Shown: positions 30,399-61,751 of the stretch, in pieces
Layout: the number at the start of each line of letters is the position of its first letter
Numbering within the stretch: the first letter of the stretch is position 1
From: Botryllus schlosseri
Lineage: Eukaryota
NCBI GenBank assembly: GCA_051294905.1
Contig: CM119372.1
Coordinates: 10,852,001-10,916,000 of the forward strand
Direction of reading: 5' to 3'
DNA length: 64,000 bases
Translations under genes and position numbers: made by a program
Notes under the pieces: model-generated
Databases searched by the model: none
Told to the model about the DNA's origin: nothing
What the model saw: the letters and a program-made list of their open reading frames with translations, nothing else

Positions 30399-31235
30399 AT
30401 ATAAACGAAGAGACTATTTGTGGGGCAACGCATTTGTTATTACAAAATAACGATTGCGAAGGTATTATTATGATTTCGAATTTTTAAATGTCATATAAAA
30501 TATATACTTATATACCCAAAATGCCACTCCAACCCGTTGTATCACCGGAACGGCGGGATATTTCACGTTCATTAGTCGTATAAGTAACTAGTTCGCAGAT
30601 ATTGAAAATGGTTTGGTCAATTTATTTCTTTATTCGATAATGACAAGAGAAACACATGGAAAGCGCATCATCTGGCAAAATGCATTCATTATAGTTGAAA
30701 CCTTTCTATGACAAGCATTGTAACCTGTAGAGAGGCTTGCGGCGTGATTTCCGAAAACAAATCGCAGCAAAGAGAAATTTCACTTGCAAATCTCATGCGC
30801 AGGATCCCTGGCAATGAATGACTATTTCGGTTACGCGGTGAGAGAAGCCAACGCGAACGAAGAAGTTTCGCCATGCGACGGCATTCGCACGCACAATAGT
30901 ATGTTATTATACAAGCAGTCGCTCACTCACTGTTCGAGACTCGTACTGCTAGCAGTGCTAGTGAGATGAGACAGGCTATTACGGAGACATGCCTTGGAGA
31001 TCGAGGAGATCTATGAACTTCAGTCGAGAATGAGTTGTGCGAGAAACTGTATTATAGACCTCGAGTGAAATGCGGATTTCTCATCGTAAGCCACAGATAT
31101 TGAATTTTAACATGGCATATTTCTATTTCCAGAACACATCGAAATGATATAATAGTTTTGAACAGTCAATTTTACAAGAGCACTGATCATATATATTACG
31201 ACTTGATTGCGTGACCACTTGCGGATATACTGACC

Positions 31236-32757
31236 ATGTCAACCATAGCTGTTCGCGTTGGACGTGAAATAAAGGAAATATCTGGACTTACCAAAAGTAC
31301 TACGTGTTGGGATGTTGTACTAGCACTTCTAAAAGAGAAGCAGGTGACCTCGGAGACGTCGGACAGCGCGACGCGCGCAAACGAAAACACAACAGCGGGC
31401 GACAACACGAATGCGGACTCAGGGTCAAATTCATCAAAATCAATCAAGGAAATAGCCCCTTCATATGTAATCGTGGAAAACTGGCGTGGCTGCGAAAAGC
31501 CCATACCCCCACGCACCAAGATTCTCAACGTATGGCAGGCCTGGGGTAAAGAGCAAAAGCATGTCGAGCTTTCTCTAAAAAAGAGCAAGCACATAAGGTT
31601 CCGAGATGGGAGCAATCGCCATACTCGGTCTCGGGCTGGAAATTTGAAGTCCGAAAATGCGGAGGTGGACCCGGATCATTATTCCCTTCACTGCATGTCT
31701 AGCCATCAGAAGAAAAAGCTACGTCGGAACATGAGGAGATACCAGCGCGCGTTGATGACGAAACAGAATGAGGACTGTGGCATTGAATCAGTAGACTCAG
31801 AAGTGAAAACTGAGCCAAAAAGCGAAAAACGAAACAGACCTATTCTCAGCGAGGAGAAATTCATTGACGGATTTTTGGCTGACCCAGACTGTCTTCTTAA
31901 AGGACCTGACAGAGCGCACTTGATAAGCCAAGGCACGTTCAATCGCGAATTTTGCAAGTATCGCAGACGGAACCGTCGACGTCATGGGACTTCTAACATG
32001 CGTCAGCACAGGCGGCATCAAGTGTCCCATTACCCGTATTCTTCGCAACTTGATAAACCGCGCTCTTCAAGAAGGGGAAGGAGCACAACGTCAAATAAGT
32101 GTCGCTACAGCTCGGACGATACGTCGACTACTTCGTCTGTGTCGTCGGAAGACGAAAATGCTTCTGACGCCGATGATGAGAAGTCGGTTTTAGTCGACAT
32201 TAGAGGCAACATTCCCCGCCGTAACATGGCTTTCAACGTCGGAAGCAGAGACGGGTACGGAGCGACGACCACTGCCACCGACTCAAGCACTACAACTAGC
32301 GGCGATAGTATGACAAGTTCAGTCGGTGGAAGTACAAGCAGCGAAACTTCCAGCGGTGGCGATTATTTCCTACCTGAGCTGCATCGGTTATCGTACGGAC
32401 GGGCGATAGAAAACGCAAAATCGACCAAAGCTAACGAAAACTCTTCAAATAATAAACCCAAAAAGAATAAATTTATTTTAAAACCGGCGCTCAGCTTGAT
32501 AGACTCGTTTCGTAAGCGAAAAACCGACAAGAAGTCCCCGGACAAACAACCCATTATATCCGATCCAAAACTTAAAACAGTAATTCCTAAACCACAAAAT
32601 TTATCGGAGTCGAAAATTCCCTTGCAAAGCGCAGAGTGCAAGGAACGCACACCCCGCGTGGAAAGAAATGTATCAGAGGCCAAAGAAGAGCCGAAACATG
32701 GGTCCAACAAGCAGGACTCTGATAGGACCGGGCCGGAACATAAAAGCACTGTCGAAG
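31236..32757 (+). CDS. RASSF9/10: RASSF9/10-like coding exon 1 (RA domain plus long basic/Ser-rich region)
   Basis: 513-aa ORF; donor GAAG|gtacgt (phase 1). Confidence 0.9.
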
Positions 32758-35700: not shown

Positions 35701-36298
35701 CAGCGACGGAAGTCGCAACAGCAGCTGCGACGGTGGAAGTCCCAGACCGATTCCGATGATAATCGAGAATCCCAGCTCCAGGCCAATATTCGGAAGAAAT
35801 TCGGGATTTAGAGGGAGCTGGAAGGAGCACTTCGTGTTCCCGAACACCTGCAAAGAGAACGGCGCCAAATTAAATCAACAGCGTTCCGTCGTCTCGTTAC
35901 CGCAAGCGATGATGAAATCGAAAGCAGGAAAACCCGAGTTGCTCCCGAAACCGGCAAGCGTCACGTTGAAGCAGGCGACGGTTGTGGACTCGAAAGAGAC
36001 CGAAATCCGGATGCAGCAGCAGAGATTGATAAGACGCAACAGCGCCGGTCGTAAAAGGAACGCTTTAGAGAACGCGAATTCCGCCCAATCCAATTCGAAA
36101 GGAGTAAAACTAAAAAACGTCTCTTCTGGATCGATTCATCCGAAAGGGAATAACTGCCAATCTTGGCAATTGAAGTTCAACGCGACCGAACAAAACCAGA
36201 GGTTCAATAACACGTACGATAACGACTCGGACACCGGTAGAAGCTCGTTGCATAGCGTCGACTCAGACCAAGTAATGTTTTCGGAAACTCTGGTTTGA
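31236..36298 (+). CDS. RASSF9/10: N-terminal Ras-association domain family protein (RASSF9/RASSF10-like), 4 coding exons: 31236-32757, 34025-34191, 34257-34817, 34973-36298; about 1191 aa
   Basis: The N-terminal RA domain (VRVGREIKEISGLTKSTTCWDVVLALL...YVIVENWRGCEKPIPPRTKILNVWQAWGKEQ) matches the RASSF9/10 pattern. A coiled coil follows, then GKNYVQ|DAYL across intron 2. The C-terminus DNDSDTGRSSLHSVDSD..ETLV resembles the RASSF10 tail. All introns are GT-AG with compatible phases (1,0,0); exon lengths sum to 3576 nt. Confidence 0.92.
34025..34191 (+). CDS. RASSF9/10: RASSF9/10-like coding exon 2 (coiled coil, ends GKNYVQ)
   Basis: Acceptor tgtttag|AT matches the phase-1 donor; donor CAG|gtacgc (phase 0). 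Confidence 0.8.
34257..34817 (+). CDS. RASSF9/10: RASSF9/10-like coding exon 3 (starts DAYL, coiled coils)
   Basis: Follows a 65-bp intron; acceptor ttgcag|GAT; donor CAG|gtgagc (phase 0). Confidence 0.88.
34973..36298 (+). CDS. RASSF9/10: RASSF9/10-like terminal coding exon (low-complexity region, DSDTG motif, ETLV end)
   Basis: Acceptor ttattctttag|AAA is in frame with the 429-aa ORF; stop TGA at 36296-36298. Confidence 0.88.
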   Translation, partial: KKGESLIDCVRDMAMSEEGVSPAVWEEYGELLTAYDMELSQRRFLEELEHSEIRINGSEDSMGWAEEANTLYIDATSPNPISHCGGTNHMNLNGPVREAGNALAPWISENSQVGCRYNGHVNHSPKHTVMQQHIPHYPQHPPLLSNLPLPTPINSRTTGNGGNSQQKVPSARLLPMLPIPGEIMSPGRHNDSDYEDLPDLTSMSKPDPSKSSRRLDLLVENEISNNTDDSGNASAGSTSSFASSDGSRNSSCDGGSPRPIPMIIENPSSRPIFGRNSGFRGSWKEHFVFPNTCKENGAKLNQQRSVVSLPQAMMKSKAGKPELLPKPASVTLKQATVVDSKETEIRMQQQRLIRRNSAGRKRNALENANSAQSNSKGVKLKNVSSGSIHPKGNNCQSWQLKFNATEQNQRFNNTYDNDSDTGRSSLHSVDSDQVMFSETLV

Positions 36299-38255: not shown

Positions 38256-38591
38256 GTCTAGTAGTATAGTTATCATTATTTTTGGTGGCACTTTTCGCCT
38301 TCTAAGGTGATGTGTGCCACGGCATAGTTAGGCATATTTCTTCCGGATGTAAAGCAAAAGTTGCTTCGTCAACGGGTTCAAATTGAATTCATGAATCTTC
38401 CATTCTATGTTATAAAAGTCTGCATCCTCCAAATGAGTGTCGTTTTGCTTGATGGTATGCACATGGAACCCGCCCCTAAAATATACGAATAGTGAATATG
38501 TCTTATTTCAAAATAAATGGTGCAATTGCAATAACTGAGCGTTTTCGTGAGAGCAGGTTCCAATTTTATTATACTAGTGGAAAGCTTAGGT

Positions 38592-42000: not shown

Positions 42001-42220
42001 TCACACTGTATCCTCCTGACAAAGAATCCTGTTTGCGAGACAACAAATTCCCACGAATGTGTCGGGTCCGATGGCAATGTCGGACTGTGACTCTGATGCT
42101 TTTGCCGCATTTAGACCAGTACCGAATCCCAGAAGTCCGCAAATTTTCTCCATCAGTGCAGGGGAGAGTTCGACAAATAACTTTTCCATGGCAGCACCAA
42201 CGTCTTTCAGTGACAATTGT
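42001..42220 (-). CDS. Minus-strand gene probable last coding exon (RQLSLKDVGAAMEKLF...ILCQEDTV*)
   Basis: tttgctgttacag|A completes the phase-2 codon and is in frame with ORF 42001-42216. Confidence 0.55.
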
Positions 42221-45200
42221 CTGTAACAGCAAACGGGATCGCTTCAAAGCCCGAAGAAGGCCAAAAGCTGGTACAGATACAGAATGATACAGGGTTGTAT
42301 TATGACTCCAGTCGTAATTTACCGGCGACTCGACGTGACTCTTGTCCTTTTCTTAAATTTGGAAAATAACTCTACTTGTACTAGACCAGTGCTCTTCAAC
42401 CTTTTTCGTCGTGGTACACCCTTTTAACGTTTACTCGAAACTCGTACACCCCTGACCACATAACGCACGGATTCCGTATAGTAGGCCTAATTCAGAGGTG
42501 CTCAACCTGTTTTCTATTCACCGCCGTATTGCAACATATAAATAGCATCTAACAGCCGCATTCCGGTGGAGAGTCTCATGACCCGTCTGGACGTCATATA
42601 CTCATGTTAAATTGGCTACTGGGAACTTTGCACCGTGGAGAGTCCGTGTTGGGTTCTGTGCCATCACTGATTTCTTGAGATATACCTTGCTTAAAAAAGT
42701 TTTTAATTGTAGCAGCAGATCACCCCCGCAGGCTTACTATCTATGCACGATAATCGCGAGTATAAATTCCAGTATAGCGCGAAAAGATTTCCCACCTTGA
42801 AAATTAATTTCGTCTATTGGTTGCTTCAAATATTACTGACAAATATTTATCCATTCTTAGCCCACGTGATCAGATTAACCGGTAGAGCGGATGGAGGGGA
42901 CATCTTCGACAAATTTGGGCACGAAATTAATGATGATGCATCTACCAGTTTTTATTAATCACTTTGTTGCATGATGCTGTTTTTTAACCTCCCATCCGGA
43001 TTGAAGCCATAGTCGAAATATAATCGCCCAAACGTATACCAGAATAACCTTCATTCGCGAGACGCACACGATTCCGACTTGGTATTTCTTTTACGGGATG
43101 CATCATTTTCCTTAGCGGTTCGCATTTGTACGGTGGGGCTCAGATTACACCATTATATTAAAAACGAGTCATCCAAGTCCCCCTGAATCGCGTTAAGAGT
43201 GAACAAAATCTTCAAGTTGAATTAAAACTCTCAAAGATTTTTGAGCCTATTCGTTGATTCAAATAGCATAATGACGGCGGCCAACACACGCTAATTTATT
43301 TATGTGTAGAGGGCCGCAAATTTTGGGTTACCGCAGGGGCGGGTTACTTTTCCAGTCGGCTGGCCGGATATGGAAAAATGAAGTACTTGGCGGTCCAGAT
43401 TCTTGAATCTATAAATTATACGCGCATTTATCCACCTAGAAAAGGAATAATCGTATTTAATGTAAACTTTCAGTTTGAAGCATAGAGACCAAAACAACAT
43501 TCAATGAATTTAATAACGTAATGCACTTTAATAGCTGTTCATGTCAATGAGACAGCTGTGGTCGATCAAAATTGCGCACAGGTTCTTTGAATTCTGGCTG
43601 CATTACGGACACAAAGAAAAGAAAGAACTAAAGAATAACTAACAATCACTAATATATGTGACAAAAATGAAGAAAAAAATACCCTACAGTCACTATAATG
43701 TGACGTAGTAAGCAAGTAGAGGAAAATTGCGGCAGACTCTGACCGTGGGTGATATTATCATGTTAGAATGCAAACTGTCTGCGGGCCGCTCATAATCATG
43801 TCGTGGGCCGAATGATGGCCGTCCTTGGTTTAACGGCTACATGTGGCCGTATAAGTCTAGCTAGAGGTTGGCCACCTCTGGCCTGTTGAAATAAGGATGA
43901 GCAAGGCTGTAACGAATTATAAATGCCAAATACTATAACCAGGGCTCGAGATTACCGGACCACCATTTAATGAAGTGGTTCTTAAACTCGACTCCCGCGA
44001 CCCGCTGCATGGTTATGCTATGTTATATACACTGCGCTATTTATAAGCATCTCGCAGGAAGTACCAATTCAAAATGTTTGAGCTCAACCAACAACGTTTA
44101 AACAATGAGGAGAAGCATTTGCTTATGAAATTATAAAAGGAATGTAATCTACGAGCTGCGTACAGCTGATATGAATATAGACCAGAGGTCTCAAACACGC
44201 GGCCCGTGACGTCATTTTGGAATTTCAAGTATTCAACAATATATTCAAGTGCCATATATCTTTTTTATATATAAGAGCCAATTTATTCAACTGGAAAATA
44301 GTCTTCGCGCCACGCGCGATTTTATGAGAATGGGCTTTCCGATTTTAATATAGGTACCATCATAAATTGTGTTGAAAATGGACAGGGGCTACGAGAAATT
44401 TTATTGGAAGCACAAGAAGTACGATCGCTCAAAAGGTTAAGAAGCAATGCTATTACTATGGCTCCATAATTATTATATTTCCGTTGTTATTGATATGTTC
44501 CAATAATAATCGAAGACAAAATCTAACGCCTATTTAATTTGACTTTGGCAATGAAAGAAACAATAGCCTATACTTATCACGGCTATATCAATATCAGGAT
44601 TAGGATACACCGCTCAAATGCTCTGATATCAGATCAATCTTCAGGGGATTTTAAAATATTCTACATAAAATCGTGGCTCGTCAAAGGTCCAATAGCTGCG
44701 ATATTAGATCCCTAACAGTTTTACTATTTCGTGATGCATCGTCTTGCATGATGTCTATAACTCATTATTTTAACAAATTAAGCCCGACACAAAAACAATT
44801 TTATTCAAATATTTGAAAATGTGATTTTTTTCGTGTCGAGCGTGAATAGTACAATATAGTTAATTGCATTTTCACGATGTTTGTGGGATGCCTGTCTGCA
44901 AGGTCCTGTCAAATAAGGCCTACTTGGAAATAATACATTGAATATATTATTGATGCTGCGGCCCGCGGCGTCATCAAAAACTAGGAAATTGGCCCGCGAG
45001 CACATTTGAGTTTGAGACGACCTCTGATATAGACAATGGACACTGTATGATATTGCACACCCGGTCAACATGTTCTTAAGCATGTACTTGCCAATTTTTT
45101 GTAATAGCTACAGTCATTGGTCCGTTTCGGATCTGGTACACCCCAGTACACCCCATTTGAGAGGTACACCCTGGGGTATACGATACATCCGGTTGAAGAG

Positions 45201-48200
45201 CCCTGTACTATAAGAGTCATTGCGCATGACTTGACCAAGCAATTCGACTCCGGACATTCTATGTGACTTTATTAAAATCATACACGTTCCTGTTTTGCTG
45301 TATTGCTGCTTTTTGCAATTAGTAAATTAACTGATAGAGTGGTATAGATAAGATATTAGCTCTTAATCGCATGAATTTTATCGTACGACATAATCTACAT
45401 GACATTGGGGCCTCAAATCCATGGGAAATTACCTCTTATTCATTTTATCGTAAGCTGTAAAGACGCGTTTGTAGAATGCTCTCCATGTGCTGCTTACTGA
45501 ACAATATTGAGATATATATTGCACCGGTTTTAAACCTTCCAACTTTCGTAGGTCCATCGGTATCGAAAACCGGATTTCGTATTTGCTGGTAGTATCTTTC
45601 ACACTTGCAGCCTGACAAATATATGATCTCGAGAATTATATGTCAGCTTATCTCTAAAAATGTACTGGGCAAGAACAAACTTTTGGGATTTCCTGACAGG
45701 CGAATGACGTGCAGTCTAGACTCGATAATATCCTGGTTGCAGTGTTCGGTTTGAGGGGAAACGACAACTTGCCCGTGCTGCTTGTTAATACGAAATTGTC
45801 TCCCGGTTTTAATAATTCCTCCTGAAGAAGTCGTCGTCTGGTCCAGGTGTAAAGATCCTGAAGGAAAAACAAAACAAAACATAACATAACATAACAAGTA
45901 ATTCTAGAGCTGTGTAGCATTAACCCCGTCCACTGCCATCTTACATATGGAATAACAGTGTGGGGCTGCTCTTACAAGAAGCATATCAACAAGCTCCAGG
46001 TATTACAAAACAAAGCCATTAGGATTATATCTAGTATACCTGCACGTAGCAGTATCAGTCCTGAATTTAGAAAATTGGGCATTCTCAAGGTCTCGGATTT
46101 GTATGAATTTGAAATTGTAAAAATCATGAAACAATATAATGAAAGAACATTACCTGAATATTTCGACAACTTTTTTCAATGCCCCAATTCAATTCACCAT
46201 TATAACACAAGATTCTCACAGAATCAGTCCCTAGGCCTATTTGTTAAATTGAATTCATCAAGACTGTCAAGAAATTCCCTATCTTATATAGGTGTGAAAT
46301 TTTGGAACAATGTACCAACTTTGTACCGTACTCTTCCTTATCATACATTTAAAGCTCGCTATTGCAAATTTATATTATCCAAGTACTAAGAAGAACATAT
46401 CTCATGACCACAGTGATGTTGTTTGTTGTTTTGATTCATTTAATATGCTACAATAATATTACTACTGTGTACATGGGTCAAATTGTTATTTTCTGATCAC
46501 ACCATAGTGTCCTATATGGTGTCGACACAAGCAAACTGCACGGTTCAATGAAATTGTATCACGTCACAGTTTCCATTTGGCTACAGGCAATTTGACGGTG
46601 ATTTTTGACCGACTTGCCGAGCATTAAATTTGATGAATCAGGTATCAATCGAAAGCTGACGCTGTACTGATTGCGAAAATATAAATTTTATTCCACTCAT
46701 GGCCCTGGAACCCCCACAATCGGCCACAGATTATTCATTGTCGGGTAGATTGACAATGTGACGCAACAATGCTGTCTGGCGAAACGTGAGACTAGCTCAA
46801 GAGCAAGGATGCGGCCGAGCGGTGAGAGTGGGATCAGCTGACGTCGCGGCGATAGCAATGTGCAACCGCGCCACAGACAAAAGCTGCGCTGTTGATACTT
46901 TTTCTATGCGCTTCGGCACAAGCGAGCACACACCAGCCGGGGCCTACGTAGGCCCAGCACGAGCCTTTCCTTGACTTGTAAGGGTAGAACCGGGTCCACA
47001 GAATGTATAGGGCCCTACCAATTTTCGCGTAATAGCCTTCAGCTGATAGAGATATTTCTAGTAAGAAAAATATACTTTCAAGTAATAAGATTCACTCAAG
47101 ACAGCAAATTTAGATAATGTAAATATATCATAGTGTTGAGTTTCACTCTAGTCCCCATAAGCACCACGTCGGTGACCTTGACACCAAATTCCGAGAAGGC
47201 GAAAAAGTACAAACTCTGTTGGGCCGAATGGACAATGGACATTCAGTTATTCAGATGCAACAAAAATAATGCAAATCCGTTTTACGTAAGTTACATTAGG
47301 AATACAAATACAGGCTACAGAATGAATATAATTCAAATGTCTGTAATACCACTGTATTACTTTTTACGCAAAAGGTCCCCGGCATTCAAAAAAACTGTTT
47401 GGTGATTGAAAAATGCTAAACCAAATTCCAACGTCAACGTTTATAGTGATATCAGATATATTCCAGTGAAAAACAAAGGTATGAATTTGGTGGTAACATT
47501 TTGGAATCATTTGGCAGGTATGGCCCGCAAGATTTCTAGTAACGGATTGAATCCGGACAGCGATACCAGTTTAATTCGACACTCCTGCTGTTAAACTTTA
47601 TTCAACAATCAACATTTTACCTGCTGCATTCGCGGACCAAGTCCTACCCATACGGATCAAATAAAAGCTTGTAATGTATGCTCATGCTCAATGCTCCTTG
47701 CTCACACTTAACCACAAAAGCGACTATAGAAAGTATCGACACCCGCCATCAACAGCGGGACGTGTCTCTGGAGCCCTACGCAACAAGCGGGCTAAGGCAA
47801 TCGATATCATAATAGTCTGACATAACCAATGTAGACTACTTAGACGTAGCCTACATATCTCTATCACCTGAAGGATATTTCGCGAAAATTGGTAGGGCCC
47901 TAATACATTCCGTGGACTCAGTTCTACCCTTACAAGTCAAGGAAAGGCTGGTGCGGGGCCTACGTAGGCCCCGGCAGGTGTGTGCTCGTTTGTACCGAAG
48001 CGCATAGAAAAGTATCACCAGCGCAGCGTTCTCATTGGCGCGGTTGCACTATGCACATTGCTCTTGCCGCGACGTCAGCTGATCTCACTCTCGCCGCTCG
48101 GCCGCATCCTTGCTCTTGAGCTAGTCTCACGTTTCGCCAGACAGCATTGTTGCGTCACACTGCCAATCTACTCGACAATGAATAATTTGGTGCTGATTGT

Positions 48201-51200
48201 GGGGGTTCCAGGGCCATGAGTGGAATAAAATTTATATTTTCGCAAGCAGTACAGCGTCAGCTTTCGATTGATACCCGATTCATCAAATTTGATGCTCGGC
48301 TAGTCGGTCAAAAATCACCGTCAAATTGCCTGTAGCCAAATGGAAACTGTGACGTGATACAATTTCATTGAACCGTGCGATTTGCTTGTGTCGACACCAT
48401 ATAGGACACTATGATCACACTGTTAACTATGTAACTATGGTAACCGACGGTTACTAACCGTCCTTCACTAGTGTTGCTGTCTTTTATTTACTTTTGTTTA
48501 TTTCGTTACTCTTTGCGGTGCTACTTGACTGAGAGAAGAAATTGATCCATATTATAATTAATACTGCCAATATGCTTGGGTGACTCCGGCCTAGAAGACT
48601 TCGGTCATATCGGGTCTCCCAGTCTATACCGTGTAAATTATAGTTAGGAAAATTTAAAAAATGTATACTATTGGACGTGAATGTTTGTGGACATTGCCTT
48701 TACTATATTTCATGGTTGACGAATAAAAAGAACTCTCTCTCTCTCTTTCTCTCTCTCGGATTATGGATCGATCTATAGCCAGGCATCGAATGTTTCACCG
48801 CATAGTAGCACAATCAAGTAGTGATGCAAATAGTCTTTTTGTTTTTGTACTTCTCCGTACCTATACAGCTACAGTAATTGACAACAAAAAGTAAGTAAAT
48901 TTACGCAATGGTTCATGATTGTCAATAGTAAAAAATTACATGTAGGCCAATTACACCAAGTAAATCGCTTAGACACACGAAGAGAAAATGCATGGCTTCT
49001 TTGATTAGGAAAAGTAATTTATCAGTCGTCTAGCACAGCAAGCCCTAATTATTATAATTCATAATTATTCCACTATTTTGGAATCGGGTGGCAGAAGTCA
49101 ACATTATGCACACATTATTTTAATTCGGATATATTTCTGTACCACCTCGCACTATTTGGGAGTCGAGTGGCGCAGTTGGTTACGTACTGCCGTCACGACA
49201 CCAACGGAAGTGGGTTCGAATTCCAGTTCTGGCCAACGGAGGTTTCTCTGGGTTCCTCATCGCCGATCTCGCTATTACGGTACTGCATTGAAATGCCAGG
49301 TCTGAAAGTGAGCCGCGCTACAAGCACCTGTGACCACGATTGGGGGTGCATGTTAGTGAGAGAGATTAGAGAGAGAGAGAGAGAGATTGACTGGGAGAAA
49401 AGGATGAAAGCCGTCCCCAAGATTACGAAAAAGCAAAGACACTATACAGAGGTCTCAAACACGCGGCCCGCGGGTCGCATGCGGCCCGCGAGAGCATTTT
49501 GTGCGGCCCGCGACGGGATTTTGGAATTTCAAGTAGCCTATTCGACAATACGTTCCAGTGCCACATATCATTTTTAGATATATGAACTTGAAATTTACCC
49601 TAAAACTACTTTAAAACACTCAAGTCTTTACAAACTACACTATCACATCACTTTTAAAAGCTACCATGCGGTAGAAGATCACCTATTACGTCACATTTCT
49701 AGTTCATGGCGATAAAACATGACCCGATGATGATTCGTGACTGAAATTTGTGATTTGGTTTAGTGCGATCTTTCGTAAAATTACTCGATTTCGGATTGAT
49801 TGGGTGATTAAATAAAACTGACTCGAGTTGAGTCAAGTCAGACGTTAAAATCAGAGAAGGACTTGCGACTCAGAACGGTGACTTGGCAATTTTACGGATG
49901 CAACAATCTATGAAACTGTCATGGGAAATAGTATTAGTAATATATCAAAAGGTCGTAGCTTGCGTTGCCTAGGGTATATATAGCTATCTAATCAGGCCAG
50001 TATGGCAACCATTGGCATGATGTGACCCCCGTGACGTATAGTTGGTTACATGCTAGGTGTTGTCTGGTCTCTTTATCCATGTTATTATTGGTGGTGAGTA
50101 AGGTAGTAGTACGCTCCACAGCTCTAACACCAATGAATTCATCGGCGATTGGACATTTCTATTCCAAGGGTTCTTAACCAGGGTCCGTAGACCCTTTCGG
50201 GGTACGGATCTCAACATCCTGGCGTACGAGATGCATTGTAGAGTTAGGCCTATATGCTGTGGAATACTTTCTTGACCAATTTATTCAACTGAAAAATGGT
50301 CTTGGCACTACGCGCGATTTTACGTGTATGGGCTTTCTAATTTTATTATAGGTACAATCAGAAATTGTGTTGAAAATTAACAGGGGCTACGAGAAATCTT
50401 ATTGGAAGCACGAGGGGTACGCTCGCTCAGGTTAAGAAACAATGCTATTACTATTACTCAATCATGAATATATTAAAGTTTTTATTGATATGGTCTAATA
50501 ATAATCGAAGGCAAAATCGGACGCGGCTTTAATTTGACTTTGGCAATGACATAGTAACTATAGCCTACTTTTCACGACTATCATAACCCGGATTAGGCTA
50601 CACCGCTCAAATGCTCTGATATCAGATCATTCATCAGCAGATTTTAAAATATTCTACATAAAATTGTGGCACGTCAAAGGTCCACTAGCTGCAATATTAT
50701 AACCCGACAGTTTGACGATGTCATGATCAATCTTCCCTCTAATTTTTAACGCATCTGCGGGGCGCACACTCACCAACTCATTGATCAGACCCTTGGACAA
50801 CAGTGCGTAACGACTAAAAAAAGGTCATCATTTCGGATTTTTTGTGTGCAACTTGGATTTTCTGTGAGCAGAGACCTTGTCAGCACTGTGCATTTGCGCA
50901 CGTGCGCAGCTCAGAGGGAACATGGGTCATGATGCATCCTCTCTCATGATGTCTATAACTCATTATTTGAACAAATAATGCCCGGCATAGAAACAATTTT
51001 ATTCAATTATTTGAAAATATGATTTTTTCTGTGTCAAGCGTGAATATTACAATAGTAAATTACATTTTCATGATAATTGTAGAATGCCTGTCTTCAAGTT
51101 CCCGTCAAATAAGACCTACAGCCTACTTGGAAATTCTCCGTTGAATATTGGTGGTGCGGCCCGCGGCGTGATCAAAACTAAGAAATTGGCCCGCGAGCAC

Positions 51201-54200
51201 ATTTGAGTTTGAGACCTCTGCACTATGAGCATTATCACAATTCGTGTCGTGGTAGCACATAGCTTGAAAAAAGCGATAAGCGCCACTGTGTTGTGCCAAT
51301 GGTAATAATAAACTCGTACTATGTGCAATTGAATAGTATATATGCTACATATAAACATTGTGTTTTCTCATAAATATAGGACAATGTTGTAAACCTGAAG
51401 AGATTGATGCAGTTCAAAATCGTTCGAGATAAACTGCGCTTTGAACTTAATTGATACAGTCGCCGATTTCCATTTTTTCGTCTGGAAGTTGGAACGAGTA
51501 GGTGCCTTGCTGGACATAAAACTCTGTAAAGGTAGTAAGGATACAGTTTAGAAGACTTCCGAATATTCTAGAAGTCGCGATCGATACTTGGATTTTCAGA
51601 ATCAACACGACAATTGCATTTGATTAATATCAGTGATCATCAATTCTGATCTATTTACGACGAGTTGCGCTGTTACACACATGTAAGGCTTGGCCGTCTG
51701 TGGCTCATCTGAGCCTTACCTCTCCTTTCGCCGTTTATTTACGAACAATAAATATGAAAAATTCCTTGATTTTGGGAACAAAAATGTTCAAAATCTAGTC
51801 ATTTATAAACATCGATAGAAGATACCAATAACCATTGACGGGTTCACAATTTTCTTCACTCATCCCTGACGACATATGAGGCACTGCCTCACTTGCCTCC
51901 CCTAACCACACGTCACTGACGTATCACACGGTGTGTATGTACTGCTGTAGTGACCATGTTTGGCTCCAACTACCCATGTGGGCAGAAAAATATGGCGTAC
52001 ACTACGAATCTCATATATTAGTGCTACCAATACGTCAAGGATTTTTAGCTATTTCAATCAGCCGTCTCCTTCAAAAAAAGTATAGTGGTGAGGATTGGAC
52101 CATAGAGACTGTAGGCTACAGTCTCTATATTTGGACGATAACCGAGGATGAATTAAGTTTGATATAGGGTATGATAAAGCGGGAAGTGGGCTTTTAATAG
52201 TTATCGGCGAGTGCTTGTGTGATCATTATGACGTCACATACTATACCATAGGCGAATAAATAAGATATTTGTCTTCCAGAATCTAGCATACCTCTGTTTA
52301 CGAGATCCTATAACAGAAAAGACAGGGATTTTTTAAGCTCAGTACTGAAGCAAAGATAAACGTACAGTACAAATTGGTATATATAAATGACGTCGAGATC
52401 TTACTGCGCTTTTAGTGCCAGATGATCTGAATGCGGCCCGCCTGTAATAAAGCTCACTTTTAATCAAAATGACGTTATTTTACAAGTCGATCTCATTTAC
52501 TTTCGCATTTTCTTCAAATTACCCTGGTCGCTCTCAACATCACATCCATCGGGATTGGCATTCGTTGAGGATTGCATCTGCGATCCGTCCTATGGAAAGG
52601 GAAATATAGTTTTGATAGACGTTAGACATACTACATCATGCGAGTATTGAAAAATATATGCGTATCCACATTTGACAAGTTTTCAGAACATTCATTCTCG
52701 TTAGCTATAGTTTGCTGCTTTTCCTAGCTTGCCGACTCGCGTATATAGGAATTGCCCGACGCAACTGCTTTGTAGTTCAGGAAATAGAATACTGTACAAG
52801 AGTGTCGATTGAGACAAAAAGGAAAGCACAACCTTGTTATTCGAAGCATCATCATTAGAAGTTCTTCGGGGTGTCTCCGGAATGATCTCAGTTTCCTCCC
52901 GCTCCGACGCACGCGGCATCATACGCGCTTCGCGAAGATACGCAATTTTCTTTCTTTTCTGTTTTCGTGGATTCACCTAATATCAAGAATGTTGTGGAAT
53001 GTGGGGATAAAGACGCATGATTCTAACATTAGATTATGGAAGCAGCCACCAAGCACCAAACATTGCAAATTCCCAGAATACAGAAAGACAGTGGCCTAAT
53101 ACAAGAATAAATTACGATAATTGCATAATCTCGCCACGAACCATTTCCCACGCAGCTAGAATCTCCCCTATTTCAGCACACACGGAAATAATGAACACAT
53201 AATGATTCCGTTTACATACGTACACGGTACTAAAAGTAAAGTGATTCCTGCAAACAGAATCAATACTCGAGATATCTGCTCATCAGTGCCGTTGGGTATA
53301 GCATGGCGAATGCAACATGAATATAATAGCCTATGCAAAAATCCTCTAGTAAATAGTGATTTAATAGAAAGACTTACTCATTGACACGTGCGTTTAGGGT
53401 TTATTTTCTGTTGTCTGTGAAAGTTACCTACCAATACATGCACATCTGGTCTATGGAGGCTCAGGTCGCAAGATTCCGCGCCATTCTTGTCTGGAATATC
53501 AGCCATGAGTGGATTATCAAAATTTTCAGTTGATTCCGACCGTTTCTTCATTGTTATGGCATCATTTTCTTCGGTTTTGTGAATACACTGGACTGTCGCA
53601 GTCCGACCGACCCGGGCTCTAATTTCGCGACGTTCTTCGACACGACGTTGGCAACAGAAGTGCACAACGCATCTGCCTGTTCATTGTTATCGCATAGTAG
53701 GCAATACGCTAAATAGGAGACGTGGAATATACGGCTTGGGAACGAACCTTTCAAATGTTTGTCGTGCCTTAGTACGGGTCCATTTGACGAATGTAGCAGC
53801 TCTACATAGAAACCGCTTTGTAAAGCTTCTTCCAGGTCCATATTCATAAAATGCTGATAAGTGAAAACAAGAACACGGAAAGGATTAGCATTGCCTCACT
53901 TTGAAACCCTGTCAGCTTTAGTATTAGGTTGTGTCCACCAGTACAGTGTTGTTAGTATTAGGGCAAGTTTTTGTTGCAGTTAAATCCGTGGAAACTTGCA
54001 TTCATTTTTGAAAAAAGTTGAAAAGTTGCAAAAGTTGCATTTTGACCACATTGCTAGGTTGACTGAAAATAAAAGGTCAATTTTCCGGCTCAGCTCCCGA
54101 AATACCCGTAAAAGCGTTACTTCGGTGCTGATTTACGGTGTTTCAGTCGAATTTGGCCGTGTATTTCACCAAAATCGAAAATACTTTCATGAAAAATCGA

Positions 54201-57200
54201 GAAAGTTGCAAAAAGTTGCATGAAAAAATGGACAAAAGTTGCACTATAAGATTCCTTCAAACAGCTTAAAACAGCATTCTCTAGGGTTAGTTCGGATATC
54301 GATAATTTTCACTATCTGGATAACGGATATATCCGTATATTTGGAATTTAGCTAACCGGTTAACCGGATAGTGAATCCGAAGTGAAATAATCGATTTCAC
54401 GAGGTCTGCATGAAAAATGGATCGCAAAAACATTACACAGTGTAATTGCAGTTCCCTCCTTATAAAGCACACCACATCAATAGTGGCATCCTGTAGCCGG
54501 GACAGGAGTTTTGTAACAAAGAGTCCACACGTATTAAATGCTCTTTCTGCTTCCACAAAATGGGCTGAATTATAGTAGGCTAAGCAAGGCTGAATATAGT
54601 AAGCAGCGCTTCCTTTTTGCCCATTCTTCTGTTTAGGTGTCCAGTACTGGAAGGACGAGTAGCTGATACCGGAATTGAGGCCGACATGATAGCTCGCTCT
54701 AATTCCTCCATGAGAAATTGACATGATCAGGCCCGTAGCCAGCCGAAAAATAAGGGGGGTGTTTTAAATAAAACGAGGTGGTTTCGATTTTTTTCGAATT
54801 TAGTATCAGCGGAAATCAATTACGCTTGCACGCACGAACATGTTTCCGGAATACGAACATTCGATGTCATTCAGTTTCGCAATGTCACTCATTAATCACA
54901 ATCGCTGATCATAATAATCTCAGCGGCATATTGTCTCCAAGCCACCAAGAGATAGGAGCCAACGCATGCCAGGCCCGAGACTATGGTTACGCCAGCGATG
55001 ATATCGTTCGTACCATGCCTATTGCAGATGCGATTGCGCAGGCCAGCGATAATATCGTGAGCACCAAGCCAATGCAGATGCGATTATGTAGGCCAGTGAT
55101 GGTGTATTGTCCACAGAGCCTATTGCAGATGTGATTCTGCCAGCGGAACTAAAGGCTTGTTGAAGACTCGAAAAACCAGGCCAGCAACGATAGCCGAGTT
55201 CGCGGCAATCAATGACCTAATTTGGTGATCTTCTCAGCGGGAGATTGCGTCGCGTTACACAGTGCATTGACGTATCCTGCTAATTGACGATGCGCTTCTC
55301 GCTAATTGGCCGCGCGAAACACTGATAATACGACTTATTGAAGCTTCCTAAAAGTTTAAAACACATTAACGATACTATTTTATACGGTTAACCGGCAGAT
55401 TTATATCTGGATATCGGATGATAAAAACACCTGCGGTTAACCGTTATGCGGATAATCCAACCCTACATTCTACATATCTTACGAGCATTTAGGAAGCTGC
55501 CGGAAGCTGTAAAAAAAGTTGCAAAAGTTGCAAAAAATTGTCTTTGTTATTATATTTAGCGCATCTGGTCGAATCGATGGTTAACCAGAGCCCAGGTAAA
55601 ATTTCGCGATCTTTTGGTGTGAGCCCAGACACAAAACATGATGCAAAATCTACTCTACACAATTTCCATCGAGACATATAGCGCAACTTGATTTCCACAA
55701 CATTAACTATACGTAGAGGCCATCCTCTTTTGTATTTCAAAATCAAACTTACTAAATATACATATTTCCTACCTGACATGATGCATCCTGAATAGTTTTT
55801 ACTGTTCGCAGATCGTGATGACAAAACACAAATTCCGCACGACCATGTACGCGGTAATGGCTGGTGTCTGGATATGACTGATGCGTCCGAGGCCGCATAA
55901 CGGTCTTTTTAACCATTTGTATGAGGATCCACTGAATGCAAATACTTGTAGCCTACTGTATGATTGCACAATTGTACAGTCGACTGCGCTTAATGCGGAC
56001 CAATTGGTTCCGTTCACTTCCGGCCGAATTAAGCGGAGAAATGGCTTTGTCCGCATTACCCGGAAAAATGACTGTTCGTTTCATGGGCATGAGTAAAGGT
56101 AGATAAGGCATTAAAATTGCTGTAGATCGTCTGTTTGTGGGATTAAAACGCATAGCAGCTGCGCTATACTACAGTAATTGGCACTGATCACATAAAACGC
56201 ATAGGAGTTACACATTCTGTCAGGTTAGGCGTTCGATACCAAACCATTCAACAAATATACTGTATATTACTATGTATAACACACACACATAGGGTGGAAA
56301 TAGTGCAGTACGAAGGCATGCAGCAATTGCTGAAAAGGAATTTGTTCTTGATAAAGTTATACACCGCAAAACAGTAGGACTTTTTAAAAAGCAAAAAGCT
56401 TTCAGCTGGGCTAAAAAAGTCATTTATCGTAAAGCCAGCAACAAACTGTCCAGGAAACGTTTTCGCTTTCTCTGGTAGACTTTACTGTGCCATTATGTTC
56501 TACAAGATGCATGCAAGCAATTGTACCGAGCAGGGCCGTAACTGCGGCACCCCAAACCACCAATTGGGGGGGGGGGGGTAGTGAGCTCCAAAATATTTGG
56601 AAAATAAACATAAATTATAAAGTATTTTTGATAGAATTTGGTAAAATATATGCAATTACAGACAAAATTCAGTCTTGAATTTGATAGTTTGTTCGCACTT
56701 CGCGCGATTAGACAACATATATCCAAGGTGCCGTTTCACAAGTGACGCTTTGAAGTAGCCATTAAAGGGGCTGACGAAGTGCAGTTTTTAGGTCCTGTTA
56801 CCCATTTAAAAGACACGATGCAATTGGTATGGTCTTTTTCTGTTGTTACTGCATGGTTCATCATTTTTTCGACAAAATCCTTCATAATGCAATTGAATCT
56901 TGCGTCACAACGTACGACGTAGCTTACCGATGTTTGTTTCATAGCCTAACGTTAGGAATTGCGAACCGGTCTCCAAATTAAGCGGATAATTGTCCGAATA
57001 AACAGGATTTTTCACGAGCAAGTTTTAATTTTGTTTCGTGCCTCAGCATTTTGGCCGAATAAATCGGTTGTCTGGGTTATCCGGTGTCCGAATTAAGCGG
57101 ATTCGACTGAACTTGTATAACCAGATTAACCACCCTGGAGGATAATAGAATTAGGAATAAGTTGCAATTTTTGTATAGATAATATGTAAAACTCTCACGT

Positions 57201-60200
57201 CTTTATGCCATGTTTTGGCGTGCGTCTCCTTTGTATTCGATCCAGATGACAGCAAAACTGAAACATAAAACAATATATTTCTTGACGTTGCAAGTCCGCA
57301 ATCAAGGGTAACTGCGCGCTAAATATGATCGTCTCAAATTAAAGTTGAACGCAAGGAAAATTTCTCTTAGCAGTCATTTTCCTCAGAAAGCCGAACTGCT
57401 GCTGAAACAGTTTCACTCCTGGTGCTATTTTGCAGAGATGAGCGGATTTGGACTTTCTATATCCTAAACCTATACAAATCCGAAGTTTCAAATCCTAATC
57501 AAATCCAAATCCAGAACTTTTGTATATTTCATCATCATCGTCATTGGTTTATTAGCAATTTTATCAGTTCAATACACCACAAAAAATGCGATACAATGAA
57601 AAGAAAGGAAGATGTCGAAGCGACTAGGAGTTGTCTATGGAATCGGGCACCCACCTTGGCCTAGGCGATGTTAAGAGGAGGCATGCACACTGAATGAAAG
57701 TAAAGAAGATAGTATAGAAAAAGTAGTATTCAAATCCCCGTCCAATCTTAATCCGATTCTAACTTGAAATTCAGAAAAAATGCTTATTTATGCAAGGAAG
57801 GAATTGGAAAATTTTCTTTCTCAACGAACAATTCTCTTGATTTAAGATAACTTAGCATAGGGATGAGCCTCTCGTGTTCATTGCAACCGAGTGTACCATA
57901 GTGTAGTGTACCGTAAGTACATTAATAACTAATCTTAATAAATTTTGTCGCCGTTCGCCACACGAGAGATCAATTTCCCAGAAAATCGGTAAATCCAATC
58001 CTAATCGGTTCAGAAAAAATCCCTAATCTTAATCCAATCCTAATCCGACAAAATGTCACAAATCCGTTTTTTTTCAAACTCCAATACTAATCCATGCTCA
58101 GCTCATCTCTGCTATTTTGCAATCCATCAATCTCTGTGGTATCGAAGACAAGCGTCATCGCTTCATCACACTTTGCGAAAACTGCTGGACAGGGTTGTAA
58201 CCAAGTCACAAGGCTCCGACTCACAAGTCAATCTCACTTTTATCGTTTTGACTCGAGTCAGGTCAAGTCATTTTCAATTCAGCACCGTGTCAAGTCCGGG
58301 TCCAAGTCAGCAAGCAGAGGGTCGAGTCCGAGTCATGGTATTGTGACTCGATTCCGAGTTCAAGTCATTGTGTTGACTGCCCAGTTTCCAATTAAAGTCT
58401 TGTTAAACGCACTTTTTATAACTCTGTTTGGTGATATCGAATGTTTCGCATTTATAATATAATTGAATAGTATATTCATATTGAAATGAAACCCGAATAT
58501 TTTCGTCTGACACTCGTCAGGGGAAATCGTCAGCAACCAGTAGAGAATGAGAAAGAACATTGTATATCAACAATCGTATCACAAAATATTACGTCACCAG
58601 CATGAAACTTCACGTATGTGTGCCTTGGAGTCGACTTTTATCAAAATACACCAACCGACACTCTGTCAACAGAAGGTGTTGGTGTACCACTTGGGAATAT
58701 TGCACTAAACGCTGTCGCATTCGAAGTTTCATGCTGGTGACATCATATTTTGTGATACGATTGTTGATATACAATGTTCTTTCTTATTCTCTACTAGTTG
58801 CTGACGATTACCCCTGACGAGTGTCAGCCGAAAATATTCGGGTTTCATTTCAATATGAATATACTAATCAATTGTATGCTGAAGTTTTGTACCTCCAAGA
58901 ATCTCTTCATTTATAATATACTATTTTTCGTCACTTTTAAAAGTTTCTAGTCGCATTTTCAAGTACCAGTACCAATAGACGAAATCCCAATGGTGGGGTT
59001 TCTTCGAAATTTTGGCCGTCTGAGTCTCGAGTCATACGACTTGGTTCGAGTCCAAGTCGAGTCAATACACAGATATGACTCGAGTCGAGTCGAGCCATTT
59101 CCGTATTTTGCGAATCAGAAAATCGTGACTCGAGTCGAGTCATGACTCGAGTCATTGCAACCCTGCTGCTGGATAAAATTGGCTGAACACTATCTAAAAT
59201 TCCTTCATAACTAACATCGGCTGACACCTGAAATTCGTTTTCTGCGTGACTGCTTATTCGCGCAAAGAACGTGCAACTAGGCTATCATTTAAAACAAACG
59301 GTGTTTTAAAACACTTTGTTTAAAGCATGTTTTAAAAAAGGCCTTTTTAAAAAAAATTGTGCTTTTTTTAAGTTGTAAAATTATGCCATAATTGTGTAAA
59401 TACTTTCCAAAAACATGTTGTATGAGCCTACGGACAATTAACACCCGATATAGCCGACGTATATCAATATGGGATGATTGGATCACTCAAAACAGTCGGT
59501 TCAACATTAATACTAAATGTATTTCGTCAAAGGAGCTATATTTACCCTATATTTTCAATTGTCGATGTCAATACATTATGACGTCATAATTGGAAATTCG
59601 TGACGTCATGGCTTTTAAAAAACAAACAAAACAAAAAACAATTAAAACATGTTTTAAATTAGAGCCTTGTTTAAAACATGTTTGTTTTACATTGATTTTT
59701 TTTTAAATGCAACCCTACGTGCAACAGTGGCGGGATGGTTATCAGAAGTTTCGCAAAGCGTCGAGAAGCGATGACACGTGACCTCGATACCACAGACATT
59801 GGTGAATTACAATACGACCACTCGTGAAGATATTTTAGCTGCAGTTCGAATACGGTGACTTTCTGAGGAAAATGACTGCTGACAAAATTATTTTCATACT
59901 TTCAACTTTAATCTAAGACCACATCATATTTAGTGCGCGGTGCCACTTCAGGCAGTTAGTTACATACTTGGATGTAATACCCCAGGTCTTGTGATAGTTT
60001 TTGTATATACTACAAATTTTTCAGTTTGTTTTGAGCTTAACCCGTGTCTGCTGGCCTATAAGATAAAAGATATTGAGAAATCTAATTGAAAACGAATAAC
60101 CACACGCTCCTTACTGTTGGCCACCTCTGACACCCTTGGACAACATCATTCGAGGATATCCTGTTCTTATCCGCGCCCAGATAGCAGGTTAGTCCTTCTG

Positions 60201-60659
60201 ACCAGATCTCGGGCGATAACGAAGTACGTTCTTGGAAGATGTTCCTTGAGCAATGTTTTACGGAGGCAATTGGCGGCTCGAACAGCATCTTGGTAAAAAT
60301 TAATGTTGACACATAACCGATAAAACACGATTCCTTAACCTCTATGTAGCAGCTTACCTTCCCTATTCTCTTACATACGCTTGACTCTGGTACCTTAATG
60401 TCAAAGAACACACAGCCATTATGGGGCTTCTCTGATTTTGCACTCGCTGTTTGGCCCCGCGTACTCTCCCGAACGTTCTCCAAGGCACAATCGCGCAACG
60501 ATGACACATCCCAAGTGCTACCATGAGCTTGTGCACGATTGTCACTAGGACGTAACTCAGTTTGACAAGCAGTATCCCGGGTCATTTTGTTGTAATACCC
60601 TCTGTCACATCTTCTCAGACAGGACAAGCCCTCTTCAATGCTTACATTTACACCGGTAC
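42001..60659 (-). CDS. Uncharacterised multi-exon protein (about 675 aa from ATG 60585) with putative ubiquitin-fold/UBX-like segments; exons 60659(or ATG 60585)-60115, 55931-55773, 53853-53432, 52976-52833, 52589-52501, 52441-52405, 51523-51395, 45857-45681, 45611-45433, 42220-42001
   Basis: Ten segments joined by GT-AG introns with consistent junction phases (0,0,0,0,2,0,0,0,2), including 59-bp and 69-bp introns. Transposons fall in the gaps between segments. One 1-nt frame disruption lies in exon 3. Confidence 0.7.
42290..45250. mobile_element. Multi-level nest of hAT-type MITEs filling the last intron of the minus-strand gene
   Basis: Outer GACTC-family fragment (42290, resumes 45207) contains 42387-45205 (TSD TACTAGAC/TACTATAA), which contains 42493-43880 (itself containing 43334-43827) and 44183-45026 (TSD ATATAGAC). 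Confidence 0.75.
45433..45611 (-). CDS. Minus-strand gene exon 9 (AASVKDTTSKYEIRFSIP...AYDKMNK)
   Basis: Follows a 69-bp intron; atttgtcag|GCT ... AAGAG|gtaatt; 179 nt, phase 0-2. Confidence 0.65.
45681..45857 (-). CDS. Minus-strand gene exon 8 (DLYTWTRRRLL...FACQEIPK)
   Basis: Strong acceptor ttttgtttttccttcag|GAT; donor CCAAAA|gtttgt; 177 nt, phase 0-0. Confidence 0.7.
45925..48756 (+). mobile_element. 5'-truncated CR1/L2-group LINE (ORF2 C-terminus 45928-46389 plus 3' UTR with (CT)n tail), interrupted by a P-like element
   Basis: VHCHLTYGITVWG...KLQVLQNKAIRII...LGILKVSDLY...HHYNTR...IGVKFWNNVP is the typical post-RT region of CR1/L2-type ORF2; the UTR resumes after 48420 and ends AATAAA...(CT)n. 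Confidence 0.88.
46503..48413. mobile_element. Non-autonomous P-superfamily-like element with about 550-bp TIRs
   Basis: CATAGTGTCCTATATGGTGTCGAC termini; 7-bp TSD ATCACAC; arms about 46503-47055 and 47855-48413. Confidence 0.88.
49158..49386 (+). mobile_element. tRNA-derived SINE with (AG)n tail
   Basis: A-box TGGCGCAGTTGG, B-box GGTTCGAATTCC, non-tRNA body, (GA)n tail. Confidence 0.8.
49447..51220. mobile_element. hAT (Charlie-like) element, longer copy of the 44183-45026 family, with nested MITE 50728-50925
   Basis: TIR CAGAGGTCTCAAAC; the nested insert has a perfect TSD GTCATGAT and is absent from the 44183 copy. Confidence 0.88.
51395..51523 (-). CDS. Minus-strand gene exon 7 (SFMSSK...ATVSIKFKAQFISNDFELHQSLQ)
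   Basis: ctacctttacag|AGT ... CTTCAG|gtttac; 129 nt, phase 0-0. Confidence 0.68.
52405..52441 (-). CDS. Minus-strand gene exon 6 (KRAAFRSSGTKSA)
   Basis: Follows a 59-bp intron; ttattacag|G ... GCA|gtaaga; 37 nt, phase 2-0. Confidence 0.6.
52501..52589 (-). CDS. Minus-strand gene exon 5 (DGSQMQSS...LKKMR)
   Basis: tttccctttccatag|GAC ... CGAAA|gtaaat; 89 nt, phase 0-2. Confidence 0.65.
52833..52976 (-). CDS. Minus-strand gene exon 4 (VNPRKQKRKK...DDASNNK)
   Basis: gatattag|GTG ... AACAAG|gttgtg; 144 nt, phase 0-0; basic NLS-like cluster. Confidence 0.65.
53432..53853 (-). CDS. Minus-strand gene exon 3 (HFMNMDLEEAL...RPDVHVL), contains an apparent 1-nt frameshift
   Basis: Strong acceptor ttgttttcacttatcag|CAT; donor GTATTG|gtaggt; length 422 nt, covered by two overlapping ORFs in different frames. 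Confidence 0.6.
53959..55544. mobile_element. Second copy of the 11719 MITE, split by a nested element at 54282-55465
   Basis: The host resumes at CATTCTAC (TSD; left copy CATTCT-C); the insert has TAGGGTT...AACCCTA ends and CCGGATA-type repeats. Confidence 0.85.
54990..55145. repeat. About 51-bp degenerate tandem repeat, 3 copies
   Basis: GCCAG(C/T)GAT...TGCAGATG(C/T)GATT repeated three times. Confidence 0.7.
55773..55931 (-). CDS. Minus-strand gene exon 2 (WILIQMVKK...TVKTIQDASCQ)
   Basis: gcattcag|TGG ... TGTCAG|gtagga; 159 nt, open, phase 0-0. Confidence 0.65.
55977..57109. mobile_element. Tc1/mariner (pogo/Tigger-like) MITE
   Basis: TA|CAGTCGAC.GCGCTTAAT ... ATTAAGCGGATTCGACTG termini; AATTAAGCGG subterminal repeats. 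Confidence 0.7.
57433..58111. mobile_element. AATCC-rich hAT-type MITE
   Basis: TIR CAGAGATGAGC; perfect TSD CTATTTTG. Confidence 0.9.
58190..59165. mobile_element. GACTCGAGTC-rich hAT-type MITE
   Basis: CAGGGTTG...CAACCCTG; perfect TSD CTGCTGGA. Confidence 0.9.
58462..58907. mobile_element. Asymmetric inverted-repeat element flanked by a 13-bp direct repeat
   Basis: About 155-bp inverted arms 58458-58611 and 58723-58877, a 30-bp extra tail on the right, CATTTATAATATA at 58449-58461 and 58908-58920; absent from the sister copy at 28980-29797. Confidence 0.8.
59278..59717. mobile_element. AAAACA/TGTTTT-rich hAT-type MITE
   Basis: TAGG...AACCCTA ends; perfect TSD CGTGCAAC. Confidence 0.85.
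60115..60659 (-). CDS. Minus-strand gene, first visible coding exon (ATG at 60585, or internal exon from acceptor at 60659)
   Basis: 181-aa ORF; donor CCAACA|gtaagg (phase 0); possible acceptor ttttataag|GT at 60659. Confidence 0.65.
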
Positions 60660-61751
60660 CTTATAAAACGCTAAACGTTGACTATAGCGTCAGTTGTGTC
60701 ATGATTGCGAGTAGCTATATATTTGCGAGGCAAACGAGAACTTAGCTAGCAGGCTCGATGTCGAGATACGAATGACACAACACAAGACTGAAGGAGGGCG
60801 AAGGACAAATAATTGGGAAACACATTATTGACAGCACACTTGACTTGGAGAGACACTTGATGAGTGCCTATGATATCGAAGATATGCATTTTTGTAGAAG
60901 CCACATCGCTCTACCACAGTCCGATGTCCACGGCCTTAAAATGACACGTATAGAGCTATACGGCGGACGGATATTACAAATGTAGCCTACGTAATATCAG
61001 GATTGGAAACGATCGATTTGGGTCGCAGTTTTGTTTTGATTCTAGTCGTTTGGCATATGTCGTCGGGGCAGTTTCACATAATTTGAAGTACAAATATTTT
61101 CGCTTCCAAATACTCCTTCAGTCACTTAGTAGCCTATAGCCTATACAGTGTGCTACAACCACACCAATTCCATATGTAACATTTATAATCTCATTTGTAA
61201 TGAAGCAATTGGTAACAAGCTATTGCGTTCAGACCAATCATTGTGATGGCACTTTCTATGGGAAGCCTCGCATTTCTGAACTTATTGTCTCTGAAAGGGA
61301 ACATCAGAAGTCCGCGCACTGATTTTCAATAAATATTCATTTTGTTTTAGTTTTGTGTGAAAATTATATTTTATTCTATTAACACTATTTATACACCAGT
61401 AATCTATTGTAATGTATCAACTGTGTAGTTTTATTTGTATTGTGGTAGATATTTTTGTTCTATGACACAGTATCTTGGGTTTCCGGGTAGGCTTGCAGAT
61501 TTAGCGGAGGCTAAGTGTTCCGCGGTTAGTAATTTTGGTTAAAGCGGCACTACGCTCTAAATATGATGTGGTCTCCAATCAAAGAAAAATATCGGGAAAT
61601 TTTCTTCCCCGCAGCCATTTTCTTCAGGTAGCCACTGCAATGGTACTCCAGCTAAATGATTTTTCGGAAACGCCCAGCTCCACACTAGCAGCAAAATAAA
61701 TCTATATGCTAGCTGTCGCGCCTGCGCGAAGCTCGGCCAGTATGGTGATCA

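Follow-up and report, generated by a model that had tools for sequence, protein, structure and literature searches.

A single-copy ascidian gene in Botryllus schlosseri with a predicted ubiquitin fold and an EF-hand-type module, probably coding for a scaffold protein

Background

Ubiquitin-like (UBL) beta-grasp domains are found as integral parts of otherwise different proteins, for instance as the UBL domains of Mpe1, midnolin and USP11, F0/F1 of FERM proteins, the Ras-binding domain (RBD) of plexin and the ULD of SATB1. USP32 is a deubiquitinase which carries N-terminal EF-hands and UBL domains in one chain. In the p97 cofactors FAF1, p47 and ASPL a UBX domain is present, for which PMC5389986 gives R...FPR as the p97-binding signature. 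Here we describe a gene on the minus strand of a 64,000-nucleotide (nt) stretch from Botryllus schlosseri (assembly GCA_051294905.1, contig CM119372.1, positions 10,852,001 to 10,916,000; this whole stretch is called the window, and coordinates are counted from its first letter). Its product resembles USP32 in that EF-hand and UBL elements are predicted within one chain, but differs from it as no catalytic domain was detected in Pfam, PDB-profile and NCBIfam searches; neither NCBIfam nor Rfam gave any match. With a probability of roughly 0.6 we regard it as a single-copy ascidian gene whose product, 725 amino acids (aa) long, is a scaffold without enzymatic function.

An initial annotation, made from the letters of the window alone, had called this gene hidden. 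It is not, since orthologues are deposited at NCBI for three ascidians. The gene is thus present in databases, where it is uncharacterised; its parts are of known kinds, and their combination was not matched to a named family. No literature was found under the LOC and accession numbers (papers using Ciona KH/KY identifiers would be missed by this search) or on a tunicate-specific protein with EF-hand and ubiquitin elements, and the Ciona gene number is absent from 11 supplementary files of PMC13225635. The combination of a predicted ubiquitin fold with an EF-hand module offers initial structural insight into this uncharacterised ascidian family.

Results and discussion

A conserved multi-exon gene

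The gene model was built from open frames and splice sites, transcript contigs and orthologues, because the chain of ten exons and about 675 aa proposed initially cannot hold in places with regard to frames and splice sites. It consists of 15 exons, joined by GT-AG introns of 59 to 5537 nt with matching phases, and its 2178 coding nt stay open over 725 codons, beginning with the ATG at 60585 and ending with the stop codon at 38328. The proposal of a spliced minus-strand frame as such was confirmed: all 11 peptides quoted in the initial annotation map to this strand, and a 14-exon version of the model matches the Styela protein (P0005) far above chance, with 33% identity over 658 columns (E 3e-102). 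Transposons had been placed in the introns, which agrees with a cover by window-internal repeats of 0 out of 2178 exon bases and 5349 out of 20080 intron bases. The end of the gene had to be moved. Instead of terminating at 42001, the frame reaches a donor at 42005 and continues in a conserved last exon (exon 15, 38328–38475; aa 677–725 and stop), which was found by tblastn with the Styela protein (38471–38337, 71% identity over 45 aa). It is the most conserved of all exons and keeps 22 of 23 columns that are invariant in the orthologues.

A search of 1.84 billion representative sequences with exon 14 returned seven matches. Five are relatives, one of them in full length (Styela clava LOC120342667); the other two, P0002 with SRCR repeats and the Candida repeat protein P0003, were dropped as chance. 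The C-terminal part of the Styela protein led further to Ciona intestinalis LOC100185877 and Clavelina lepadiformis CAK8698103.1/LOC143450702. These three are collinear orthologues over all conserved blocks, and the full-length, collinear homology together with the single copy places the Botryllus gene in the same orthologous group. All five matches of the Ciona protein in this genome lie inside the locus; the gene is single-copy. At their source the orthologues are named 'uncharacterized', and the UniRef name of the Clavelina entry is 'EF-hand domain-containing protein'. A first metagenome scan yielded no confirmed case among 596 pattern matches. Three near-identical metagenome contigs (L003–L005), standing for one further ascidian, carry the final three exons, interrupted by the same two phase-2 introns. 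In 164 aligned codons, the differences at the three codon positions amount to 0.38, 0.27 and 0.62, a pattern that fits selection acting on the protein.

The named relatives are all ascidians; in most blocks Styela is nearer to the Botryllus protein than the other two, and no relative was named outside the tunicates in searches that were word-based or used one exon of 72 aa. This supports the initial view of a lineage-restricted, uncharacterised multi-exon gene. A word-index search for longer proteins with exon 14 gave 0 out of 49 candidates; for the Ciona EF region shorter relatives were 2 out of 145, both exon-sized pieces of this gene's own family. In the ESM Atlas, exon 14 led to an EF-hand cluster (0.92) and, at 0.94, to clusters without a name; the leads for the Ciona C-terminal part did not exceed 0.85 and comprised, among others, hypothetical proteins of rotifers and chordates as well as EF-hand clusters. 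In view of the weak rotifer and chordate leads, the C-terminal module may be older.

Predicted domain structure

The structure model of the Styela orthologue shows one internal ubiquitin-fold domain, here called S2 and predicted for about aa 183–282 (the module FVFCHHDL...VELLHSSNGP). It has a five-strand sheet gripping one helix, and the assignment is supported by fold search. Exon 5 (55773–55931; aa 184–236) codes for strands 1 and 2 and the helix, exon 6 (53748–53853; aa 237–271; 60/60/43% identity to the Styela, Ciona and Clavelina orthologues) for the remainder of the sheet, and exon 7 (53432–53676; aa 272–353) for the final strand, after which a disordered linker begins. Its closest known counterparts are the integral UBL domains named above. 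S2 shows no sequence-level match to them, stands among different domains, and has a long insertion in the hairpin of strands 1 and 2 as well as an extra short helix. The fold was missed by sequence searches: the orthologues have no Pfam record for it, and PDB searches with three profiles gave nothing meaningful. The fold-search lists were filled by S2, so that their silence on the other segments is not an absence. A single-sequence AlphaFold model of the Styela protein had a predicted local distance difference test score (pLDDT) of 31 and was not used; a hydrophobic-periodicity scan missed S2 as positive control and was discarded.

The second predicted module is C-terminal and of EF-hand type, and is helical in the models. 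Exon 13 (45433–45611; aa 546–604; 58/51/47% to the orthologues) codes for a helical lead-in and the first half of the EF-hand loop, exon 14 (42005–42220; aa 605–676) for the remaining EF-hand region; the intron position and phase of exon 13 and the phase-2 donor at 42005 are the same in L003. The initial annotation had read a segment here, YEIRFSIP...FYKRV, as a beta-grasp, but it leads into the EF-hand region, and for exons 13–14 both models predict helices, with confidence that is low to middling. Like EF-hand proteins in general, Ciona, Clavelina and L003 share a canonical first loop of 12 residues, with acidic residues at positions 1, 3, 5 and 12 and Gly at 6; in the structure model of the Styela protein, helices flank the loop. 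In the window copy and in Styela, by contrast, the loop is degenerate, basic and without this set of acidic ligands, only positions 1 and 12 being acidic in the window copy. The second hand appears from the alignment to carry a long variable insertion.

Up to four beta-grasp segments had been proposed. S2 stands, and the EF-hand region has to be taken from the list. Of the N-terminal module FFDIK...CYIEV one half is intron; 'CYIEVKESCFIG', formerly taken as coding, sits in the in-frame 69-nt intron 1 (60289–60357) that is skipped by a contig of run X7. The conserved core of the N-terminal block, S1, is encoded by exon 2 (60115–60288; aa 77–134). It has 36/28/24% identity to the three orthologues and a model pLDDT below 50; a local hhalign comparison with ubiquitin and Ras-association (RA) sets gave no signal, in a test which also misses S2 as positive control. 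The remaining segment, S3, is split between exon 11 (51395–51523; aa 444–486), supported by tblastn to Styela 603–640, and exon 12 (45681–45857; aa 487–545; 59/39/41% to the orthologues). S3 (aa 459–543) is probably a second ubiquitin-type fold lacking the p97 signature; in the Styela model its helix alone is confident.

It was S3 which the initial annotation had considered its clearest module, and UBX-like. If S3 were a true UBX domain, the protein would be a p97/VCP adaptor. A weak pattern covering the first two strands and the helix indeed resembles the UBX cofactors: hhalign against seven UBX domains of this genome aligned 35 columns, a score reached by only 3 of 277 column shuffles, the FP dipeptide is invariant, and a UBX hidden Markov model search of 16 segments put four S3 rows at ranks 1, 2, 3 and 5 of 14 listed. 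Yet hhalign assigns a probability of only 6%, the score is attained by 14 of 277 block shuffles, and 18 comparisons were made. Pfam UBX (PF00789) finds nine places in the genome and none at this locus, 0 out of 5 S3 rows have any Pfam family at E <= 10, and R...FPR is not present, the strand-1 Arg being absent and FPR being replaced by FPLK in all four species. Also unlike FAF1, p47 and ASPL, no UBA or SEP partner was detected. A complex prediction, made without alignment, of the p97 N domain of this genome with Styela S3 scored 0.11 against a mark of 0.34 and is no evidence either way. We consider a p97 adaptor unlikely. The same applies to a second reading, in which S2 would be a Ras-association or Ras-binding domain, making the protein an effector of small GTPases that might share its regulation with the RASSF gene next to it. 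Exon 5 matches Pfam PI3K_rbd (E 3.1e-4), and the structural matches of S2 include the RA domain of NORE1A (Foldseek rank 2) and the RBDs of plexins, SIN1 and ELMO. However, these rows are tied with plain UBL rows, the 21.4 bits of PI3K_rbd are below the cut-off of 22, and the signal is absent in all three full-length orthologues. No RA or RBD profile scored above cut-off, Pfam RA finding six places in the genome and none here. Ras-binding surfaces are basic, whereas the strand-2/helix stretch of S2 is net acidic in all four species (K/R 2–4, D/E 5–6).

ISG15 and FAT10 chains are also among the tied matches of S2, which could speak for an extended tandem modifier of four beta-grasps marked by CQ(E/R), a motif with which three of the segments end in the initial annotation. 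This is largely refuted and seems to us highly improbable. Neither blastp nor hhalign (best probability 0.5%) detected internal repeats among the segments, the orthologues do not retain the CQ(E/R) ends, one module is half intron, and the C-terminal region consists of helices with an EF-hand loop; a Gly-Gly after the last UBL is absent from the terminal exon and from the ends of S2 and S3. The ubiquitin-fold domains would rather serve as protein-binding surfaces than be conjugated. A more far-reaching version would be an ascidian-specific scaffold with up to three unrelated-looking ubiquitin folds (S1, S2, S3) and an EF-hand pair. Its ancestor would have combined, in a single chain, a Ca2+ sensor, PKA sites, a docking site for PP1 and a non-canonical UBX-like domain for p97 binding, and the regulatory motifs would have been lost stepwise in this lineage. 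We give it a slim chance.

Linker motifs and proposed function

Between S2 and S3 the linker continues from exon 7 through the basic exon 8 (52833–52976; aa 354–401), placed by phase and by contig ends at 53430 matching its first two bases, to exons 9 (52501–52589; aa 402–430; 10–24% to the orthologues) and 10 (37 nt, 52405–52441; aa 431–443), both placed by phase and splice sites. In the three named orthologues 34 of 189 linker columns are invariant, 29 of them within one stretch of 76 residues. Conserved motifs are KK[TS]VTF, RRxSLPPPP and RRESVAISFG, the latter two presumably PKA-type RRxS sites. KK[TS]VTF fits the RVxF consensus for PP1 docking given in PMC6406801; the pattern [K/R]x(0-1)[V/I]x[F/W] has one conserved match in each of the three orthologues versus none in the window protein. 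An invariant RVxF motif in a disordered linker is what these orthologues have in common with PP1-interacting proteins, PP1 binding being a prediction.

The orthologues (891–1031 aa) have a longer N-terminus with FCWRH and CxxC, the RVxF motif and the conserved RRxS sites, whereas the window copy is without all these. It keeps 3 of the 22 invariant columns of the FCWRH/CxxC block and 4 of the 29 of the linker stretch, as opposed to 28/38, 25/36, 44/63 and 22/23 in the folded blocks. The lost motifs do not occur as an alternative exon in any minus-strand frame of 38.3–64 kb, nor the N-terminal ones up to 70 kb. In P0005 121–220 and the orthologues FCWRH, CxxC and further Cys/His are invariant and could form a zinc site; the window copy has lost most of these residues.

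Folded binding domains together with a disordered, motif-bearing linker constitute the anatomy of a scaffold. How it might work is more tentative. The ancestral protein may have recruited the phosphatase PP1 through KK[TS]VTF, been phosphorylated by basophilic kinases at the two conserved RRxS sites and sensed Ca2+ by its EF-hand, thereby directing PP1 towards proteins that its folded domains bind. The linker columns lost here argue against such a PP1 scaffold in this copy. Having kept its folded domains and lost RVxF, the two conserved RRxS sites and the ligands for Ca2+, it could act as a reduced, Ca2+-insensitive structural adaptor. The species thus provide a natural experiment: Ca2+ loop and RVxF are both present in Ciona and Clavelina, the loop is lost in Styela, and both are lost here.

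Transcript evidence and integrity of the locus

Transcript contigs from 4 of 24 listed runs were compared over 51300–60800. The two runs that contributed the contigs described here, X6 and X7, are not recorded as RNA, which limits this evidence. The coding part of exon 1 (60358–60585; aa 1–76 from the first ATG) is poorly conserved; no stop interrupts its frame as far as an AG at 60660, which makes an upstream exon possible, although none with conserved coding sequence was found across 60.5–70 kb. Contigs start at 60597 (X7) and 60567 (X6). Record 11 of X7 aligns at 60373–60597, 60114–60291 and 56864–57257. It skips intron 1, in agreement by length with record 6 of X6, and the homology to Styela picks up again at the acceptor of this intron. 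Both contigs have six extra nt at the skip, best explained as an allelic difference. Between the second and third pieces of record 11 lie 87 nt, which fit exactly the 88-nt exon 3 (59968–60055; aa 135–163). Further downstream, record 3 of X6 and record 8 of X7 both align at 53430–53675, which fixes the frame-shifting intron of 71 nt before exon 7, and the 266 nt of record 8 upstream of 53675 equal the predicted length of exons 5 and 6 plus one base. Junctions 4, 5, 6, 11, 13 and 14 lie within gap-free homologous blocks, and the linker junctions 8–10 are placed by phase alone. None of the 15 joints listed out of 398 belongs to this gene. Raw-read depth over exon-only bins was 0 in X11 and below 2 in X15, so that expression there is low.

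The transcript evidence is weakened by X6 record 6 and X7 record 11, in which exons 1–4 are spliced and then followed by 330–520 nt of read-through past the donor of exon 4 (59 nt, 57199–57257; aa 164–183). The extension covers window 56676–57198, and other intron pieces in contigs lie at 51494–51755, 52651–52841 and 56067–56317; they reflect either intron retention or a short 5' isoform. Together with the loss of the N-terminal and linker motifs, this could indicate two transcription units or a decaying gene, with exons 1–4 transcribed separately as a short unit and the full-length frame out of use. But the frame is open over all 725 codons, the folded blocks are retained as given above, and the orthologues carry both parts in one protein. 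Moreover, the joining of exons 4 and 5 rebuilds a D-W pair, the last Asp of the one and the first Trp of the other, which is invariant in the orthologues, and X7 record 8 begins, by its length, at the first base of exon 5. We therefore find a split or decaying locus rather improbable and retain the single gene for a scaffold protein.

Neighbouring gene and other observations

The initial annotation had described the gene as convergent with a RASSF9/10 gene, and a RASSF-type neighbour on the plus strand was found at 31215–36298, the two stop codons lying about 2 kb apart. Judged by its sequence this is an N-terminal RASSF gene of the RASSF7-10 type, with matches to Pfam RASSF8-10_RA (E 2.9e-7, above cut-off) and PDB 2cs4 (C12orf2; E 0.0024). 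Its first frame (31215–32777) has 520 aa, the stop codon lying at 32777, and about 40 aa are inserted within the RA domain. It is followed at 33928–36298 by another three open segments, which are coiled-coil-like. The frames are either joined by an internal donor or belong to two isoforms. Contigs L003–L005 have no RASSF match within their 5–9.5 kb.

Several other elements were seen in and around the introns. A plus-strand frame of 164 aa (45895–46389) ends 38 nt from the acceptor of exon 12; it has no Pfam match and looks like the C-terminus of a LINE reverse transcriptase. Intron 11 contains long inverted arms (46503–48413; 362, 116 and 48 nt, 91–95% complementary) around about 800 nt, and two diverged copies of one short repeat (79–98% by block) lie at 44278–45018 in intron 13 and 50276–51215 in intron 11. 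Upstream of the window end, translated stretches on the plus strand of L006 (about 6,300–9,400) look like gag-pol fragments of a long terminal repeat retrotransposon. Elsewhere in the genome the p97/VCP gene (L047; G000:C15, minus strand) occupies one open frame of 802 aa and is apparently intronless, and several UBX, ubiquitin-like and small-GTPase genes likewise stand in long single frames.
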